Shown here piece after piece: positions 3,876 to 60,276 of a stretch of 64,000 bases of DNA. How positions within the stretch are numbered: the stretch's first letter is position 1; the number at the start of each line of letters is the position of its first letter. The position numbers were made by a program, and so were the translations under genes. Under the pieces are notes generated by a model. That model had not been told where the DNA came from and ran no database searches. It saw only the letters and a list, made by a program, of their open reading frames with translations. This DNA is from Minisyncoccota bacterium (lineage in GTDB: Bacteria > Patescibacteriota > Minisyncoccia > Phycocordibacterales > UBA9973). The stretch is from contig DATKGV010000004.1 in the NCBI GenBank assembly GCA_035510575.1, forward strand, positions 6,839 through 70,838, written 5' to 3'.

Positions 3876-4748
3876 TTAAATAATCTCTCCCTTAAACACA
3901 AAAGTAGCGGGGCCACGGAGGATGACGTGGCCTTTGTCGTTTTGAGATAAGAATAATTTACCACCCGGAAATTCCAAAGTTACCTCACTTTGCGTTAGGT
4001 CTTGCCTAACGCTGTTTTTTGTAAGTATGGAATAAACTGCGCAAGCGCCAGTGCCACAGGCAAGAGTGGCACCACAACCGCGCTCCCAGACCTTCACTTT
4101 GTAATAATTATCCCCGCCTGCTCCCGAACTATCGTGAGGGCGGGCAGGATTTACTTTTTCAACTAATTCCATATTTATTTTGTTTGGGAAATTTTTATCA
4201 TTCTCAATTTTAGGACCAATTATTGAAAGGTTATATTTATTTAAATCATCAACAAGTCCGACAGCATGTGGATTACCCATTGATACAAATTCAAATAAAA
4301 TATTTTCAAGTTCCATTGGATTAGCAGGGAAGTCGTTATGAGCAAATACAGGCGCACCCATATCAACAGAATATGTCCCATCTTTATGGCATGTAATTTT
4401 CTTTATGCCAGCTCGCGTATCAATAAATAATTCTTCTTTAAATTGTGAGGTCTGTTCTAAGAAGAATTTCGCCACGCAACGCACCCCATTACCGCACATT
4501 TCAGCTGTTGTTCCATCGGAATTATAATAATTCATAAAACAATCAGCTTTATCCGATGATTCAACTAAAATTACACCATCAGCGCCTATTCCTAAATGCC
4601 TATCACATAAAAACTTTATATATTCAGGCGCAAAATTAACCACACCATTCATGTTATTTATCATGATGAAATCATTGCCGGCGCCGTGATATTTATAGAA
4701 ATTAATCATATATCTTTTATTATACCAATAAAATGGTATAATTATCAC
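3876..4748 (-). CDS. dapF: diaminopimelate epimerase, carrying two in-frame palindromic insertions
   Basis: FYKYHGAGNDFI and CGNGVRCVA DapF motifs, plus ERGCGATLACGTGACA. Contains element A1 (4112-4148, encodes PARPHDSSGAGGD) and B1 (3992-4012, encodes VRQDLTQ). Confidence 0.8.
   Translation of the reverse strand: MIIIPFYWYNKRYMINFYKYHGAGNDFIMINNMNGVVNFAPEYIKFLCDRHLGIGADGVILVESSDKADCFMNYYNSDGTTAEMCGNGVRCVAKFFLEQTSQFKEELFIDTRAGIKKITCHKDGTYSVDMGAPVFAHNDFPANPMELENILFEFVSMGNPHAVGLVDDLNKYNLSIIGPKIENDKNFPNKINMELVEKVNPARPHDSSGAGGDNYYKVKVWERGCGATLACGTGACAVYSILTKNSVRQDLTQSEVTLEFPGGKLFLSQNDKGHVILRGPATFVFKGEII
3992..4012. repeat. family B palindrome B1 (gcgttaggtcttgcctaacgc), in-frame in dapF
   Basis: Stem gcgttagg / cctaacgc around loop tcttgc. 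Encodes VRQDLTQ. Confidence 0.7.
4112..4148. repeat. GC-rich hairpin element A1 (family A), in-frame in dapF
   Basis: ccccgcctgctcccgaactatcgtgagggcgggcagg. Near-identical to 41008-41043 and the reverse complement of 21064-21103. Confidence 0.75.
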
Positions 4749-20675: not shown

Positions 20676-20718
20676 GCGCTTCATTTTTTTGTTTAAATAA
20701 TGAAGCTTACAACATTTG

Positions 20719-20790
20719 TGACCTCACTGGGAATCGCACCCAGCTTCCAAGCTTGAGAAGCTTGTGTCCTAACTGATAGACGATGAGGCC
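20719..20790 (-). tRNA. tRNA-Glu (anticodon CUC)
   Basis: Minus-strand cloverleaf: GGCCTCA / TC / GTCT-ATCAGTTA-GGAC / A / CAAGC-TTCTCAA-GCTTG / GAAG / CTGGG-TGCGATT-CCCAG / TGAGGTC / A. Anticodon CTC. G54 in the T-loop is atypical. No encoded CCA. Confidence 0.65.
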
Positions 20791-21032
20791 AATATTTTTA
20801 TTTTATTTTTTATATACTTTCTACCAAAACCACTTTTGAAATATTTTTCTTTTTTCCTCGCATCCTGTATGTTATCCGTATTTTCATAATAAATCAATTC
20901 AAAAGGTGCTCTAGACCTTGTTGATCTTACTGTTTTATTATTATGATTTTCTAATCTTTTCTCAAGATTATTAGTAAACCCATAATATAGCTTATTATCT
21001 ATTTTACTTTTTATAACGTATACAAAGTACAT
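20769..21032 (-). CDS. GIY-YIG nuclease superfamily protein (YhbQ/UPF0213-like)
   Basis: MYFVYVIKSKIDNKLYYGFTNNLEKRLENHN is a GIY-YIG motif. The last 7 codons are read from the tRNA-Glu 5' end. The longer track ORF (to 21113) has an N-terminus encoded by a duplicated tRNA fragment plus hairpin element A2. Confidence 0.6.
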   Translation of the reverse strand: MYFVYVIKSKIDNKLYYGFTNNLEKRLENHNNKTVRSTRSRAPFELIYYENTDNIQDARKKEKYFKSGFGRKYIKNKIKILASSSIS

Positions 21033-21050
21033 ATTTTGATGTCCTAACTG

Positions 21051-21115
21051 ATACCTGCCCGCCCTCACGAAAGCTCGTTCGGGAGCAGGCGGGGACGATG
21101 AGGCCATTGACACTA
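21051..21115 (-). repeat. partial duplicate of tRNA-Glu nucleotides 1-25, interrupted by the 40-nt GC-rich hairpin element A2 (21064-21103)
   Basis: gtcctaactgata + cctgcccgccctcacgaaagctcgttcgggagcaggcggg + gacgatgaggcc. The flanking 25 nt are identical to 20766-20790. Confidence 0.7.
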
Positions 21116-21200
21116 TTTAATAAAATTAACAAAATATACGATTATTTACAAGTAGATAAAATAATAGCCGTCCAACAATATGAACGGCTATATATTTTAA

Positions 21201-21473
21201 TTACCACAAGACAGCTTTGGCTGCAGAAACCGCATAGGATGTGTTGCCATTTTCAAGAGCAGTTAAATCTTTTCCTTCCAAAAGGATAACCCATTGTACC
21301 CATTTTTTAACTTTTCCCATGATAGGATGATGCTTTCCACACCCACATTTAACAGCAACTTTAATAAAGAAATTATTTGTAATAATTTCTTCAACATGAC
21401 ATTTTTCAGGACGTTTTGGAGAATTATTCTCTAATTCCTGAAATTCTGGCAGATAATTAATTTTCGTTCTCAT
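21201..21473 (-). CDS. hypothetical Cys/His-containing small protein
   Basis: 90 aa with CHVEE ... CGCGKHH. Confidence 0.25.
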   Translation of the reverse strand: MRTKINYLPEFQELENNSPKRPEKCHVEEIITNNFFIKVAVKCGCGKHHPIMGKVKKWVQWVILLEGKDLTALENGNTSYAVSAAKAVLW

Positions 21474-24885: not shown

Positions 24886-25790
24886 ATTTTTTCTATTATC
24901 CTTAATTTGGCGCTGCGGGAGCGCGGATTCTCGCGCAATTCATCATCGCTCGGTGTTATGGGTTTTTTGGTGATAATATTCGCATATCCTTTTTGTTTTA
25001 AATCAACGAAGGCGCGCTTGACTATGCGATCCTCCAAGCTGTGAAAAGTTATAATTGCCATGCGTCCATTGTCTCCAAGCAGGTTAAATCCTTTTTCTAT
25101 AGCTTTTTCCAGATTTACGAGTTCGCTGTTCGTTGCTATGCGAAGGGCTTGGAAAGTCCTTGTTGCCGGATGGATTTTCATCCTCTTATAGCTCCTGCCC
25201 ACGGCTTCATCGATTATCTTCACTAAATCAAATGTGGTCTTTATGGGCTTTTTTTTGCGGGCATCTATAATGGCCTTGGCAATCTTGCGGGAATATTTCT
25301 CTTCACCGAAGCCGTATATGATATCAGCTAGTGTTTTCTCTTCCCACGTATTCACGATATCGCGGGCCGTTAAGTCATCATCAGTTGGATCTTTTTTCAT
25401 CGTCATCAGAAGCGGTTCATCTTTTAAAAAAGAGAATCCCCTGCCCGCCTCTTCCAGCTGGAATGAACTGATGCCAAGATCAAGCAATATTCTGTCTGCA
25501 TGAATGATATTCAACTCATGAAGAATTTTATCCATGTCTTGAAAGCCAGCCGTCCGCAAAATTGCATCGTGCGGAAGATCGCCTACTAATGATTTGAAGC
25601 GGCCGACTGCATCGGAATCCAGATCAAGGCCGATAATCTTAATGCCTGAACCGAAACGGCGGATTATTTCAAAACTATGCCCCCCGCCGCCAAGCGTTCC
25701 GTCAACGACAATATCGCCGGACTTTATCTTAAGCCCGTCAATCGATTCGTTTTTCAGTACTGAAATATGCGTCATATTATTAAAGAACAC
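24882..25790 (-). CDS. rsmH: 16S rRNA (cytosine1402-N4)-methyltransferase
   Basis: HISVLKNESIDGL ... DGTLGGGGHS. Confidence 0.85.
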   Translation of the reverse strand: MFFNNMTHISVLKNESIDGLKIKSGDIVVDGTLGGGGHSFEIIRRFGSGIKIIGLDLDSDAVGRFKSLVGDLPHDAILRTAGFQDMDKILHELNIIHADRILLDLGISSFQLEEAGRGFSFLKDEPLLMTMKKDPTDDDLTARDIVNTWEEKTLADIIYGFGEEKYSRKIAKAIIDARKKKPIKTTFDLVKIIDEAVGRSYKRMKIHPATRTFQALRIATNSELVNLEKAIEKGFNLLGDNGRMAIITFHSLEDRIVKRAFVDLKQKGYANIITKKPITPSDDELRENPRSRSAKLRIIEKI

Positions 25791-30030: not shown

Positions 30031-30046
30031 CAGGAGAAAAATGTTT

Positions 30047-30161
30047 GTTTCGAAAGAAAGAACTGTTGCCGGCATTCCACTTGTTCTTGGGATCAAACTT
30101 GTTCACGTTCACGTTCGGACCATCAGCATTGTGCCACACGTTCACGTTGCAAAGCTCGCCT
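30047..30161 (-). repeat. DGR template repeat (TR)
   Basis: 115 nt, 87 percent identical to 30484-30600. All roughly 15 mismatches are T on the plus strand (A on the minus strand) in this copy against G/A/C in the other. Its translation shows the classic AAC-rich pattern (NVWHNADGPNVNVNKFDPKNKWNAGN). Confidence 0.7.
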
Positions 30162-30413: not shown

Positions 30414-30950
30414 TTAAATCTTTTTTAAGGATCTAAGAGTTTCAGATTCAAAGTGTCCGAAGACACTAAAAATCAAAGTATTAGTTGCGAAAGAAAGAAC
30501 TGTGGCCGGCATACCACTCGAGCTCTCGGGAGCAAACTCGTGCACGTTCACGTTCGGACCATCAGCAAAGCGCCACACGTTCACGCGGCAAAGCTCGCCT
30601 CCATCTTTAAACCATACAAGACCTTCTTTTTCATCCTGTACCATTTTAGCGGCCAATCCAAATGCTTCTTCTTTGCTGAAAAATTCATGGCCATCAGTTA
30701 TTTCTTTTTCAGTCATAACTTTGTCATTTGTTTTTTCAATAAACTTTTCAGGAACAGAAAGCATTTCTGGAAGATTGTCAAAAAATTCTTTAAATTCCCA
30801 ATAATAATTGGTTTTCAAAATTTTCTTTGCAATTTTTCCTATTGTCACTGTAGAAGATAGCTGAAGATTTTGTTTTTTTCTTAAAAGAATTATCATATAA
30901 ATAACTCCGATAAGAATCGCTAACTGAATTAAAAGATAAACTGTTTCCAT
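30414..30950 (-). CDS. DGR variable target protein (small membrane-anchored, C-terminal VR)
   Basis: 178 aa. N-terminal TM helix. C-terminal ...GGELCRVNVWRFADGPNVNVHEFAPESSSGMPATVLSF is encoded by the VR. Confidence 0.65.
   Translation of the reverse strand: METVYLLIQLAILIGVIYMIILLRKKQNLQLSSTVTIGKIAKKILKTNYYWEFKEFFDNLPEMLSVPEKFIEKTNDKVMTEKEITDGHEFFSKEEAFGLAAKMVQDEKEGLVWFKDGGELCRVNVWRFADGPNVNVHEFAPESSSGMPATVLSFATNTLIFSVFGHFESETLRSLKKI
30484..30600 (-). repeat. DGR variable repeat (VR)
   Basis: Cognate of the TR. Differs only at TR-adenine positions, plus one 2-nt indel. The 3' end (gccggccacagttctttctttcgcaac) is IMH-like. Confidence 0.7.
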
Positions 30951-38706: not shown

Positions 38707-39480
38707 TTATTTTTTATGCAAATAATATTTTCTTTTAGCTTCAGGCAATCTTTCTATTGCGTAGCGGAGCATGGTGCGGGACATGTTTTTAATATTGGAA
38801 TCTAGAAATTTTATGAGTTCTTTTTCAGACACTCTTTTCCCTACTTCGCGAAGCATCCAGCCACAGGCCTTTTTAATCAAGTCGTGTTTGTCTTTCATCA
38901 AGATTTTTACAATCTTAAAAGTCCATTTATACCCGCCCGCATCGCCTTGTGAAGCATGGCGGGCAGGTTCCCCTTTGTAAATAAAAGCAAACGTAGAAAT
39001 AATTGCAATTCTTTTCTCCCAAAGATTTTTTGAATTGGCAAGTTTCTCAAGGACGGTCCTTGGGGAAACTCTCTTAATGACCGTCCTTTTGTACAAATAA
39101 TCCCCAACAATATAACCAGCTGATAAATCAACCAAATCCCAATTATTTATATATTTCGTATGCGATAAATAAAAATCACAAATCTGCTTACCCCATAGGT
39201 CTTGCCTATGGGGTTGTCTAGTTTTATATTTATGAACTAATATTAAAAGCGCTACTAGTCGTGCCTCATGATATTTATTTTTTATAAGTTTTGAAACATC
39301 AGAAAGCGCAAGCTCGCCGTATTTTACGGCGAGCTTGCGCGATTCCGGAACTGCAATTCCCAAGAAAAAATCGCCTTTTCCATATTCCCCTTTGCCTGTC
39401 TTAAAAAATCCGGATAATATGCGAGCTTTCTCCGGATTGGCTTTCACTTTTAATTCCTTGAGAAGATCATACAAAAGCAT
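38707..39480 (-). CDS. DNA alkylation repair protein (AlkD/AlkC HEAT-repeat family), with two in-frame palindromic insertions
   Basis: DNA_alkylation family pattern (WMLREVGK ..., NWDLVD). Contains A3 (38932-38967, encodes EPARHASQGDAGG) and B2 (39191-39213, encodes PHRQDLWG). Confidence 0.65.
   Translation of the reverse strand: MLLYDLLKELKVKANPEKARILSGFFKTGKGEYGKGDFFLGIAVPESRKLAVKYGELALSDVSKLIKNKYHEARLVALLILVHKYKTRQPHRQDLWGKQICDFYLSHTKYINNWDLVDLSAGYIVGDYLYKRTVIKRVSPRTVLEKLANSKNLWEKRIAIISTFAFIYKGEPARHASQGDAGGYKWTFKIVKILMKDKHDLIKKACGWMLREVGKRVSEKELIKFLDSNIKNMSRTMLRYAIERLPEAKRKYYLHKK
38932..38967. repeat. GC-rich hairpin element A3 (family A subtype ii), in-frame in alkD-like gene
   Basis: cccgcccgcatcgccttgtgaagcatggcgggcagg. 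Shares its termini and loop core with 45232-45268. Confidence 0.7.
39191..39213. repeat. family B palindrome B2 (ccccataggtcttgcctatgggg), in-frame in alkD-like gene
   Basis: Stem ccccatagg / cctatgggg, loop tcttgc. Encodes PHRQDLWG. Confidence 0.7.
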
Positions 39481-39944: not shown

Positions 39945-41339
<1,395 letters not shown>

Positions 41340-58914: not shown

Positions 58915-60276
58915 TTATTTTAGCATATTTTTACGGCTTTTATGCCTATAGAAAGCAATTGCAAATCTATGCGACTCGCCGTTGGCAAGCAAGATGGATT
59001 TCTTATGAAGCTTAATTATTTGTTCATCGCCGATTATAGCTTTAGCTTTATGCTTGTCATTTTTAACAACAGCAACTATTGGAATATCAAATTGATAACG
59101 ATTAAGCACTTTTTTGGCGACATTTATCTGAGCAATACTGCCATCCATAACTACAAGATTGGGAATCCCCCATTCAAGATGATGGAGTCGGCGAGACAAA
59201 ACTTCTTCAAGGGCGCCAGTATCATTTGAATGCGTTTGAGTACTTATAATGAATTTCCTGTACTCATTTTTATTTGATTTATTATTTTCAACAACTGTCA
59301 TAACGCCAACCATATTCTTGCCAGACATATGAGCAATATCATAAGCTTCTATCCTAAATGAAGCTATAAAATGATTTCCAGAATGGTCTGGCCGAGCGTA
59401 ATCGCGAGGAGATCCGAGGACCTTTTGGAAATCATTTTCTAGCGAAATATCTTCTTTTATAAGAGCCACATCATTTATGTGTTCTAAGGCGAAAATTCTT
59501 TTCTTAACCTCATTGGCCTTTTCAAATTCTTTTTTCTTTGCATAAGAAAGCATTTCCTTCTTAAAATTTTGAATTATCTTTTTCTTTTTGCCTTGAAAGA
59601 AAAGATTTAAATTGATAATATTTTTTTTATATTGGTTTAGTGAAGCAGAAAAAGAGTTTTCAAAATGGTCTGGCCGAGCCGAAGGCGAAGGAGATCCGAG
59701 GACCTTTTGAAAACTCTTTTTCTGCGAAATATTACTAATTTCTGGTGTTAAACCTAATTGTTTATAAAATTCATAATTTTGCTTCTTGCTGGAACTTGCA
59801 TCAATATACGGGAAAATCCTGCGAATTATCTTCATTGCTTCGCGAAGCTGCAAGCCATTCGGAAATGGACCGTAGACAGAATTAAAGAAAAGTTTTTCTT
59901 TAATTCTGTCTAGATTTCTCCCCCGCACCACCAAAACTTTCGGTAATTCTTCCCTAGTTATACAAACATAATTAAAACTTTTATTGTCTTTTTCTTTTGT
60001 ATTATATTTCGGCTGATATTTTTTTATTAAGTTCGCTTCAAGAATAATAGCTTCCAAAACAGAATCGGTTTCCTGCCATTTTATGCTGTCTGCTTGCATA
60101 ATCATATCCACAAGCAATGGTCCGCGAGTGGCTATCAAATCCTTGCCAAAATAGCTCTTTACTCTATCTCGTAAAGAAGTAGCTTTACCTGTATATAAAA
60201 GAGTTTTCTCTTTATAAAAGAAATAAACACCAGGTTTATCAGGAATTTTATATTTTTTTAAATCTTGACTTTTCAT
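58915..60276 (-). CDS. uvrC: excinuclease ABC subunit C (short form lacking C-terminal HhH), with two in-frame copies of element C
   Basis: N-terminal GIY-YIG (PGVYFFYKEKTLLYTGKATSLRDR), UvrB-interacting helix (EFEKANEVKKRIFALEHI), C-terminal RNaseH-like endonuclease (DGSIAQ ... ESHRFAIAFYR). The repeated FQKVLGSP..ARPDH segments are encoded by C2 (59397-59440) and C3 (59655-59710). Confidence 0.8.
   Translation of the reverse strand: MKSQDLKKYKIPDKPGVYFFYKEKTLLYTGKATSLRDRVKSYFGKDLIATRGPLLVDMIMQADSIKWQETDSVLEAIILEANLIKKYQPKYNTKEKDNKSFNYVCITREELPKVLVVRGRNLDRIKEKLFFNSVYGPFPNGLQLREAMKIIRRIFPYIDASSSKKQNYEFYKQLGLTPEISNISQKKSFQKVLGSPSPSARPDHFENSFSASLNQYKKNIINLNLFFQGKKKKIIQNFKKEMLSYAKKKEFEKANEVKKRIFALEHINDVALIKEDISLENDFQKVLGSPRDYARPDHSGNHFIASFRIEAYDIAHMSGKNMVGVMTVVENNKSNKNEYRKFIISTQTHSNDTGALEEVLSRRLHHLEWGIPNLVVMDGSIAQINVAKKVLNRYQFDIPIVAVVKNDKHKAKAIIGDEQIIKLHKKSILLANGESHRFAIAFYRHKSRKNMLK
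59397..59440. repeat. element C2 core (reverse complement of C1 core), in-frame in uvrC
   Basis: aatggtctggccgagcgtaatcgcgaggagatccgaggacctttt, flanked by its own inverted repeat aaatgatttcc / ggaaatcattt. Confidence 0.65.
59655..59710. repeat. element C3 core, in-frame in uvrC
   Basis: aatggtctggccgagccgaaggcgaaggagatccgaggaccttttg, flanked by the inverted repeat aaaaagagttttc / gaaaactcttttt. Confidence 0.65.

Follow-up and report, generated by a model that had tools for sequence, protein, structure and literature searches.

How can a nuclease gene end inside a transfer RNA (tRNA) gene, built from the same letters, while that tRNA gene stays intact? The question is raised by a locus in a stretch of 64,000 nucleotides (64 kb) from a Minisyncoccota bacterium (NCBI GenBank assembly GCA_035510575.1, contig DATKGV010000004.1), which we refer to as the window. 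Here the open reading frame (ORF) of a small GIY-YIG nuclease runs into the 5' end of an intact gene for tRNA-Glu(CUC), and a partial copy of the same tRNA gene, split by a GC-rich palindrome, stands upstream of the ORF. The whole looks like a selfish cassette of 315 bp placed between the tRNA gene and its own promoter region. Selfish nuclease genes are known to persist in essential genes in two ways, by self-splicing (introns and inteins) or by bringing a replacement gene end together with an integrase (islands and prophages). We favour, with moderate confidence, a homing-type cassette driven by a hairpin-specific nuclease, similar to the Ssn nucleases and their NTS repeats, that would regenerate its own target.

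Anatomy of the tRNA-Glu locus

Coordinates at this locus are on the minus strand unless stated otherwise. The parts of the locus are:

20718-20790, minus strand: intact tRNA-Glu(CUC), called by ARAGORN and matched over its full length by Rfam RF00005
20769-21032, minus strand: GIY-YIG nuclease ORF, 87 codons plus stop, single domain (Pfam PF01541)
21033-21039, minus strand: 7-nt spacer (tcaaaat) separating the ATG from the partial tRNA copy, read from the sequence
21040-21053, minus strand: partial tRNA copy, part B, an exact match to tRNA nt 13-26 (TATCAGTTAGGACA)
21054-21093, minus strand: GC-rich 40-nt palindrome (CCCGCCTGC...GGCGGGCAGG), located within the partial copy, between tRNA nt 12 and 13
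21094-21105, minus strand: partial tRNA copy, part A, an exact match to tRNA nt 1-12 (GGCCTCATCGTC)

In the direction of transcription, the copy of tRNA nt 1-12 is followed by the palindrome, the copy of nt 13-26, the 87-codon ORF and finally the intact tRNA. The GIY-YIG gene is the sole ORF between the repeats. The palindrome lies on one side of it only, ending 21 nt before the ATG at 21032, and an AGGA inside part B is found 10 nt ahead of this start codon. At its other end the gene is made of tRNA: ttG GCC TCA TCG TCT ATC AGT TAG (LASSSIS and stop) corresponds to tRNA nt 1-22, which encode the last seven codons and the TAG stop (20769-20771).

The first-pass annotation of this stretch had recognized both the tRNA-derived end of the ORF and the direct repeat of the tRNA 5' end. 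The last seven codons and the stop stand as it read them, with the overlap shortened from 25 to 22 nt; the repeat is likewise real, and its length becomes 26 nt (12 + 14; 27 with the preceding T) instead of 25 nt (13 + 12). The two copies are identical at 26 of 26 positions. GGCCTCATCGTC occurs just twice in the window, at 21094-21105 and 20779-20790, where shuffled sequences give an expectation of 0.16; TATCAGTTAGGACA also occurs just twice, at 21040-21053 and 20765-20778 (0.03 expected). An alternative upstream start that would read through the duplicated fragment and the hairpin had been proposed as well. The corresponding frame exists, starts with GTG and spans 114 amino acids (MSMASSSPPAPERAFVRAGRYQLGHQN-MYF...), and we rejected it as a real gene given that the extension is not conserved among homologues.

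The tRNA itself scores 51.4 bits on the Rfam tRNA profile (gathering score 29). It does carry the G2-U71 and the unusual G in the T-loop (TGCGA) that had been pointed out from the start. In the window and in three of three metagenome alleles (4/4), a D-loop CAG (A18 for G18) goes together with a T-loop TGCGA (G55 for T55), and the T-loop is TTCGA or TCCGA in all 113 CGG alleles with a readable T-loop among the metagenome tRNA-Glu genes (L081-L200; we number loci in this way throughout). This covariation of the 18-55 tertiary pair argues that the odd tRNA-Glu is not decaying. We therefore rejected the idea that it is a pseudogene; it is probably functional.

The ORF encodes a predicted single-domain nuclease

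The Pfam GIY-YIG profile matches residues 1-72 of the window protein with 56.9 bits (cut-off 22.6; E = 2.6e-15). Across 45 homologues, Y16, G18, R26, and E62 are invariant and Y5, H30, and N31 are at least 90% conserved; the window protein has all of them. An AlphaFold model built with the family alignment reaches a pLDDT (predicted local distance difference test) of 94.5, and structurally it is closest to UPF0213 BH0048, the Slx1 nuclease domain (TMq 0.61-0.67), and the catalytic domain of I-TevI. Slx1 is a structure-specific nuclease. Run against solved structures, the family profile finds UPF0213 at E = 2e-11 and Slx1 at E = 2e-5. Within the tRNA-Glu clade, the ratio of nonsynonymous to synonymous substitution rates (dN/dS) is 0.06-0.24, with dS near saturation, and these low values indicate that the nuclease ORF is under purifying selection. 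We take the conserved residues, the fold, the family profile, and dN/dS together as evidence of a working nuclease, its activity being predicted: judged by sequence and model, the ORF encodes an intact single-domain GIY-YIG nuclease of the Slx1/UPF0213-like branch.

The family is large, with 6,647 representatives of 50%-identity clusters at E <= 1e-10. Its 97 members closest to the window protein have 78-87 residues and come mostly from Patescibacteria (Paceibacterota); the window, too, belongs to a Paceibacterota metagenome-assembled genome. The C-terminus of most close homologues reads LALSSNG or ASSSNG, the translation of GGCCCTATCGTCTAACGGTTAG, a tRNA-Glu 5' end. Among viral contigs, 119 pattern hits contained no relative of the nuclease, and the search of plasmids found only a YazA-type gene and a Legionella operon gene, neither of them a cassette. 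Many public gene calls in the set P0099-P0248 are 105-125 residues long, extended at the N-terminus by 20-40 residues, and a few contain two domains; these over-long calls are probably mis-calls that run through a partial tRNA copy and palindrome, or through tandem cassettes.

The arrangement recurs at tRNA genes and beyond

Is this arrangement a peculiarity of one genome? We fetched 80 loci from species-representative genomes, containing 90 copies of the ORF, and called tRNAs with ARAGORN. For 26 of the 90 copies, a tRNA on the same strand starts between -25 and +15 nt from the stop codon (expected fraction 0.0013, or about 0.1 copies). Five further copies lie just 3' of a tRNA and five adjoin genes for transfer-messenger RNA (tmRNA). 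The tRNA targets include Glu, Arg, Lys, Val, Thr, Asn, His, Gln, and Pro, and the hosts are Patescibacteria, Bacteroidota, Omnitrophota, and Planctomycetota. A neighbour-joining tree groups the cassettes by target: all nine Glu cassettes are monophyletic, and the Lys, Val, and Bacteroidota-Arg cassettes each form groups of their own.

Each ORF that is followed by a tRNA also has, upstream, a partial 5' copy of that same tRNA. These copies start between nt -5 and +1 and end between nt 12 and 38; another 1-21 nt lead to the ATG. In the Arg, Val, and Thr cassettes, the TAG stop codon of the ORF is tRNA nt 8-10, the conserved U8-A9-G10. Three cassettes are mirror images (L052, L055, and L049), in which the intact tRNA is followed by the ORF and then by a partial 3' copy, with a palindrome in the anticodon loop or T-loop of that copy. 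In every case, the intact gene is preserved and the palindrome is in the partial copy. There are also tandem arrays, in L018 (two units), L055 (three units with a period of 315), and L040.

Other branches of the family have other targets. In a tmRNA clade (L015, L019, L023, and L076 at the 5' side; L058 at the 3' side), the nuclease lies between smpB and the tmRNA gene, and a GC-rich palindrome abuts the tmRNA 5' end. Another branch has terminal inverted repeats (CACCCCGTTAGATA ... TATCTAACGGGGTAA), the right arm of which encodes a C-terminal YLTG or LSLTG followed by the stop, and is inserted in protein genes (L010-L017, L021, L024, L035, L036, L043-L045, L054, L056, L070, L075, L077, and L078). 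In L078 the element lies within the 5' end of gap, whose first 35 nt occur on both sides of it; in L044 there is a weaker copy of the gap start that is only similar. The element interrupts a NIAEG four-helix-bundle gene in L013, L014, and L045, and a further insertion of this branch is in an ATPase-like gene (...NAIVHKDY...). The duplication in gap and the insertions in protein genes show that the strategy of entering a conserved gene and providing a spare gene end is not limited to tRNAs.

Two side observations concern tRNA targets. In the tRNA-Pro cassettes (L027, L040, L009, and L033), the left hairpin consists of the displaced tRNA nt 1-9 (CGGGGCGTG) and the element's CCCCG, and CCCCGTTACAAATTTC can also pair with the right end of the element together with intact tRNA nt 1-5, so that two alternative stems are possible. 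In two metagenome loci, L159 and L169, the 5' half of a tRNA-Glu runs into roughly 100 nt of foreign sequence that looks structured, after which comes a truncated 3' portion; an intact tRNA-Glu lies about 185 nt downstream. The first copy could be an intron-containing or otherwise disrupted tRNA, unrelated to GIY-YIG.

These results define a widespread class of minimal cassettes consisting of a nuclease and a palindrome, undescribed in the literature that we searched: the arrangement appears neither in the searchable literature (subscription-only literature was outside our reach) nor in the 2006 survey of the GIY-YIG superfamily.

The palindrome is a constant component

Every partial copy that we could trace is interrupted or directly followed by at least one GC-rich palindrome of 19-62 nt. 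Its site depends on the lineage. In Glu cassettes, it follows tRNA nt 12, in either orientation, in the window, L001-L004, L008, L136, and L202-L205, and nt 5 in L005-L007 and L128; in L179 it is found in the anticodon loop. Arg, Thr, and Asn cassettes have it after nt 22 or 23, and the Lys cassettes have palindromes at both 11/12 and 22/23. One palindrome type, for example CCTGCCTGCCGGCAGGCAGG, accompanies related ORFs across different tRNAs and phyla. Given that a palindrome is present in every partial copy and that its types travel with clades of the ORF, we consider it a constant component of the cassette and not a later insertion, and the earlier proposal that a family A element was inserted afterwards into the upstream repeat is not supported.

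Alignment also shows selection on the palindrome stem. Across 15 aligned palindromes, the stem CCCGCC/GGCGGG is kept in 95% of cells, and a compensatory change from C:G to A:T is seen between close relatives.

The family to which the palindrome belongs has the consensus CCCGCCYGC...GGCGGGCAGG in the window, with imperfect stems, and four further copies besides that of the cassette. All four are solitary, 36 nt long, and in frame within a gene on the minus strand:

4113-4148, plus strand: palindrome in dapF
38932-38967, plus strand: variant palindrome in an AlkD-like DNA alkylation repair gene
41008-41043, plus strand: palindrome in atpD, adding 12 residues
45233-45268, plus strand: variant palindrome in atpB (ATP synthase A chain)

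The insert in AtpD coincides exactly with a 12-residue gap relative to E. coli AtpD. Palindromes can insert on their own, as shown by a palindrome nested within a palindrome in L001 (4898-4980; CCCGCCTGCTCC, then CTGCCAGCTCTCGAAGGGCAGGCTGG, then CCGAGTACGCGAGGGCGGGCAGG). Three palindromes are found in L205. Elsewhere in the window, an isolated half-site of the family (CCTGCCCGCC) lies at 25440-25449 with no obvious partner arm.

The cassette is accessory and has left a relic

Immediately upstream of the cassette the window has an orphan gene:

21201-21473, minus strand: orphan ORF of 90 residues, Cys-containing, between murF and the cassette, with its own terminator

This ORF finds no homologue but itself among 5.8 billion proteins, so we sought empty sites by scanning metagenomes for the 5' 26-mer of the tRNA-Glu. 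The scan yielded 123 tRNA-Glu genes, 112 of them with enough upstream sequence. Only three of these 112 are occupied at the tRNA-Glu by a GIY-YIG ORF (L128, L174, and L179); a fourth locus, L106, has a cassette at a neighbouring tRNA, and the remaining 108 have no GIY-YIG ORF within 700 nt upstream.

A locus that is syntenic with the window, L136, has the scar without the gene. Here a murF C-terminus that is 54% identical is followed by a small ORF and a terminator, then by GGCCTCATCGTC, a palindrome, TAACGTTTAGGACA, 12 nt, and the tRNA, with no ORF for the nuclease; from this order of parts, L136 is an ORF-less relic that kept the scar and lost the ORF.

Among the closest relatives of the cassette (P0001, 90% amino acid identity; L202-L204), the tRNA is identical, murF lies directly upstream, and the palindrome occupies the same 12/13 site in the opposite orientation. 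L204 shares the downstream flank as well. L203 and L204 lack the orphan ORF, and murF there directly adjoins the cassette. In L001, L007, and L008, the surroundings of the cassette show no conserved synteny. At nt 5-6, the allele in the partial copy (TC, TT, or CT) matches that of the genome's own tRNA in nearly all genomes, the exception being L008. We considered this mismatch as proof of horizontal arrival and set it aside; it is suggestive, but decay of an old partial copy also fits.

The cassette is accessory, then, and the first-pass view of a homing-endonuclease-like cassette with a duplicated 5' tRNA part agrees with the recurrent layout, the empty sites, and the scar in L136.

Expression of the nuclease and the tRNA

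The following signals bear on transcription:

21164-21191, minus strand: intrinsic terminator of the upstream orphan gene, found by a terminator scan (11-bp stem and T-run)
21122-21130, minus strand: extended -10-like sequence TGTTAATTT, ending 17 nt upstream of the partial copy
20800-20827, minus strand: promoter-like TTGGTA-16-TAAAAT inside the 3' end of the ORF, 10 nt before the tRNA +1 (9/12 in a consensus scan)

The terminator marks the upstream limit of the tRNA and cassette transcription unit. We had also considered the palindrome as the terminator of the preceding gene and rejected it; it lacks a T-run, and a proper terminator is present at 21164-21191. About six of nine Glu cassettes have a TGnTAnnnT motif 9-17 nt ahead of the partial copy (four found by regular expression; L007 and L008 by eye). 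The same motif is present in 27 of the 108 empty tRNA-Glu genes and sits 7-16 nt before +1 in 19 of these 27. Since the cassettes have their -10-like motif where unoccupied tRNA-Glu genes carry theirs, the nuclease ORF is probably transcribed from the tRNA promoter. The tRNA, in turn, could be served by TTGGTA-16-TAAAAT as a candidate replacement promoter. RNase P cutting at the tRNA +1 would strip the stop codon from the ORF message, limiting expression of the nuclease.

A proposed mechanism

How might such a cassette move? In the homing-type mechanism that we favour, the nuclease would recognize the palindrome in single-stranded or extruded form and nick beside it, with Ssn enzymes at NTS hairpins and Slx1 at branched DNA as models for this step. 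The cut would fall next to the palindrome or, in an empty gene, at the corresponding position. Since GIY-YIG enzymes act by hydrolysis and carry out no strand transfer, copying must rely on host recombination, for which the tRNA-derived stretches would act as portable homology arms. Repair of the break would then copy a unit consisting of the palindrome, the short tRNA piece, the ORF, and tRNA nt 1-12 into an empty tRNA-Glu gene between nt 12 and 13, or between nt 5 and 6 in the sister group. Together with the promoter-like sequence in the 3' end of the ORF, the incoming tRNA 5' end would regenerate a working tRNA and the host would survive, while the original 5' end would stay upstream beside the palindrome. 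By splitting the direct repeat, the palindrome would lower the chance of a viable precise excision.

Several features of the family would be expected outcomes of such a copying process: tandem arrays, palindrome-only products, the ORF-less relic, and flipped palindromes. The solitary 36-nt palindromes in atpD, atpB, dapF, and the alkD-like gene may be ORF-less products of the same system. Circle or tandem junctions of the cassette would read ...AAAATATTGGCCTCATCGTC and then the palindrome. The position of the cut offers a lead, though not a result: the palindrome in the window is preceded by CGTC, and a cut 3 nt upstream would fall between tRNA nt 5 and 6, which is the palindrome site in the sister cassettes L005-L007 and L128.

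A number of points weigh against this mechanism. Cleavage by the enzyme of this clade is argued by analogy, and insertion would have to rely on host recombination through arms of only 12-26 nt. The regenerated tRNA keeps the presumed target, and the model does not explain how occupied sites would be immune; the tandem arrays may result from re-cutting of such sites. Between cassettes, dS is 0.8 to more than 2, near saturation, and no near-identical copies were found at different targets within one genome. Together with the lack of relatives on viral contigs and of cassettes on plasmids, this means that recent mobility is not demonstrated. The partial copy in L008, which differs from its own tRNA, is not predicted cleanly by any simple model. 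Near cassettes, the core word of the palindrome is only about threefold enriched. Finally, the SRM motif of the Ssn system, HGTCWYN(0-2)YYVSBRHN(0-5)WNVSBRGN(0-2)RNCYNB, is found in the +/-500-nt flanks of just one of the 80 loci, a difference from that system.

Alternative explanations

The alternative that survives best is that the locus is an old scar. The nuclease would be a vertically inherited host gene, for instance an Ssn-like one controlling palindromic repeats or incoming DNA, which is expressed from the strong tRNA promoter and is immobile. The strong purifying selection with saturated synonymous divergence fits this idea, as do the conserved place next to murF in the window, L202-L204, and L136, and the lack of viral relatives; SsnA, moreover, has a host-level role in Neisseria transformation (PMC11893778). 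We nevertheless consider it unlikely. A vertically inherited host gene would not be expected in only three of 112 matching tRNA-Glu genes, nor would its insertion signature be found at dozens of different targets. The tandem arrays, the loss of the ORF with the scar retained, the palindrome flipped between close relatives, and the differing synteny in L001, L007, and L008 also speak against it. This explanation overlaps with the homing-type model in that it disputes current mobility, not origin.

Could the 26-nt repeat instead be a simple target-site duplication? A GIY-YIG element would have made a staggered cut in the tRNA gene, fill-in would have produced the repeat, and an unrelated family A palindrome would have arrived later. 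Two copies that are identical at 26 of 26 positions and directly bracket the ORF are what such an event would leave, and duplicating host sequence would automatically give the genome's own allele at nt 5-6; the solitary palindromes and the nested one in L001 also show that palindromes insert alone elsewhere. What makes this course of events quite improbable is the palindrome itself, which is present in every examined cassette, be it of the 5' or the 3' kind, at no fewer than six tRNA types and from Patescibacteria to Bacteroidota. No cassette with an uninterrupted partial copy was found among those examined, and that a target of about 26 nt should have been hit later, independently, each time is not credible. 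Furthermore, the duplication always starts at a functional gene end (the tRNA +1, the ATG of gap), which a DNA cut cannot sense, and the implied duplications would span 12-50 nt. A staggered-cut target-site duplication is not established, and the recombination route proposed above accounts for the anatomy no less well.

Chance similarity or an assembly artefact, for which only the shortness of the repeat speaks, has a negligible probability: each half of the repeat occurs as a single pair in the window, against an expectation of 0.16 at most, and recurrence of the arrangement in independent assemblies from many studies refutes it.

Other repeats in the window

Two further duplications were seen in the window, away from the locus. 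Two 92-nt copies at 59359-59450 and 59641-59732 are 76% identical, lie 282 nt apart, are internally palindromic, and have a conserved core in common (TGGTCTGGCCGAGC...GGAGATCCGAGGACC). The segments 30038-30161 and 30475-30600, 86-88% identical, form a tandem duplication (period about 437 nt) that may be a duplicated gene segment.

Significance

If the homing-type model of a self-regenerating cassette is true, selfish nuclease genes would have a third way to live in an essential gene and spare the host, one free of introns and integrases: about 300 bp, no recombinase, and a spare gene end. Ssn-type single-domain GIY-YIG nucleases would gain a mobile-element biology and natural targets, and in-frame palindromes in housekeeping genes of reduced genomes could be explained. 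The cassettes would account for many over-long gene calls of 105-125 residues and for many orphan tRNA fragments in annotation. Thousands of pairs of a small nuclease and a palindrome would be candidate tools for single-stranded DNA (ssDNA).

We also put forward, more tentatively and aware that it may well not hold as a whole, a broader proposal. These cassettes would form an undescribed class of site-specific mobile elements of about 0.3 kb, each pairing a structure-specific GIY-YIG nuclease with a palindrome. They would copy themselves into tRNA, tmRNA, and housekeeping genes across phyla, harmlessly because they supply a replacement gene end, and the same nuclease would scatter the in-frame 36-nt palindromes.

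Comparison with known systems

By analogy, the nearest published system is the Ssn family. Ssn enzymes are single-domain GIY-YIG proteins of 94 residues; their binding sites are the NTS/SRM hairpin repeats in ssDNA, and cleavage occurs 3 nt upstream of a CGTC-hairpin motif (Chenal et al, 2025, Nat Commun, PMC11893778). The ssn genes are flanked by NTS repeats, and the authors note that NTS-ssnA-NTS looks like an insertion sequence; NTS are rarely inside genes, and SRM are present in the flanks of 71% of SsnA homologues (PMC11893778). Both systems have a single-domain GIY-YIG protein below 150 residues (87 in the window, about 90 in Ssn), and in both the gene lies beside a hairpin repeat of 20-50 nt that recurs in the genome (40 nt in the window, with four more copies in 64 kb). 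CGTC precedes the window palindrome as it precedes NTS. In contrast to the Ssn arrangement, the hairpin in the window is one-sided and embedded in a partial copy of the target gene, and the Ssn paper makes no mention of tRNA, of target-gene duplication, or of in-frame copies inside genes (PMC11893778). The sole hit of the SRM motif in the window is unrelated to the cassette. The likeness to Ssn (cd10448) drawn here is one of architecture; the nearest solved relatives of the window protein are UPF0213 (E = 2e-11) and Slx1.

Homing genes with a GIY-YIG domain, such as those for I-TevI and SegB, have in common with the cassettes the catalytic domain, a sporadic occurrence at a conserved site, lineages specific for a target, and a presumed spread by break repair. 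SegB of phage T4 is a free-standing homing gene in a tRNA gene cluster and cuts within the tRNA gene region (PMC2330249). The present family differs in that a single domain of 87 residues takes the place of an enzyme with a separate DNA-binding domain (I-TevI has about 245 residues), in that classical homing involves neither target duplication nor a palindrome, and in residing in cellular genomes, not in phages.

The IS200/IS605 and REP/RAYT systems also combine a small nuclease gene with hairpins that are scattered ORF-less, with recognition of ssDNA hairpins as a likely shared feature. Their enzymes, however, are HUH (Y1) transposases with covalent intermediates and hairpins at both ends; here we find a hydrolytic GIY-YIG enzyme and target-derived repeats.

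Integrative elements that target tRNA genes (tyrosine integrase islands and prophages) are likewise bordered by direct repeats of part of the tRNA, and the copy carried by the element restores it. Indeed, the 3'-type relatives L052 and L055 look exactly like a miniature tRNA-targeting integrative element. The cassettes differ in being integrase-free and about 0.3 kb as a whole, in replacing mostly the 5' part, and in a displaced copy that is always broken by a palindrome.

Finally, the solitary palindromes resemble the Rickettsia palindromic elements (Ogata et al, 2000, Science), reportedly about 100-150 nt long, in lying in frame within housekeeping genes (atpD, atpB, and dapF) and adding a short peptide. 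They differ in measuring only 36 nt and in sharing their genome with a candidate partner nuclease, a putative link that would join them to the cassette at tRNA-Glu.

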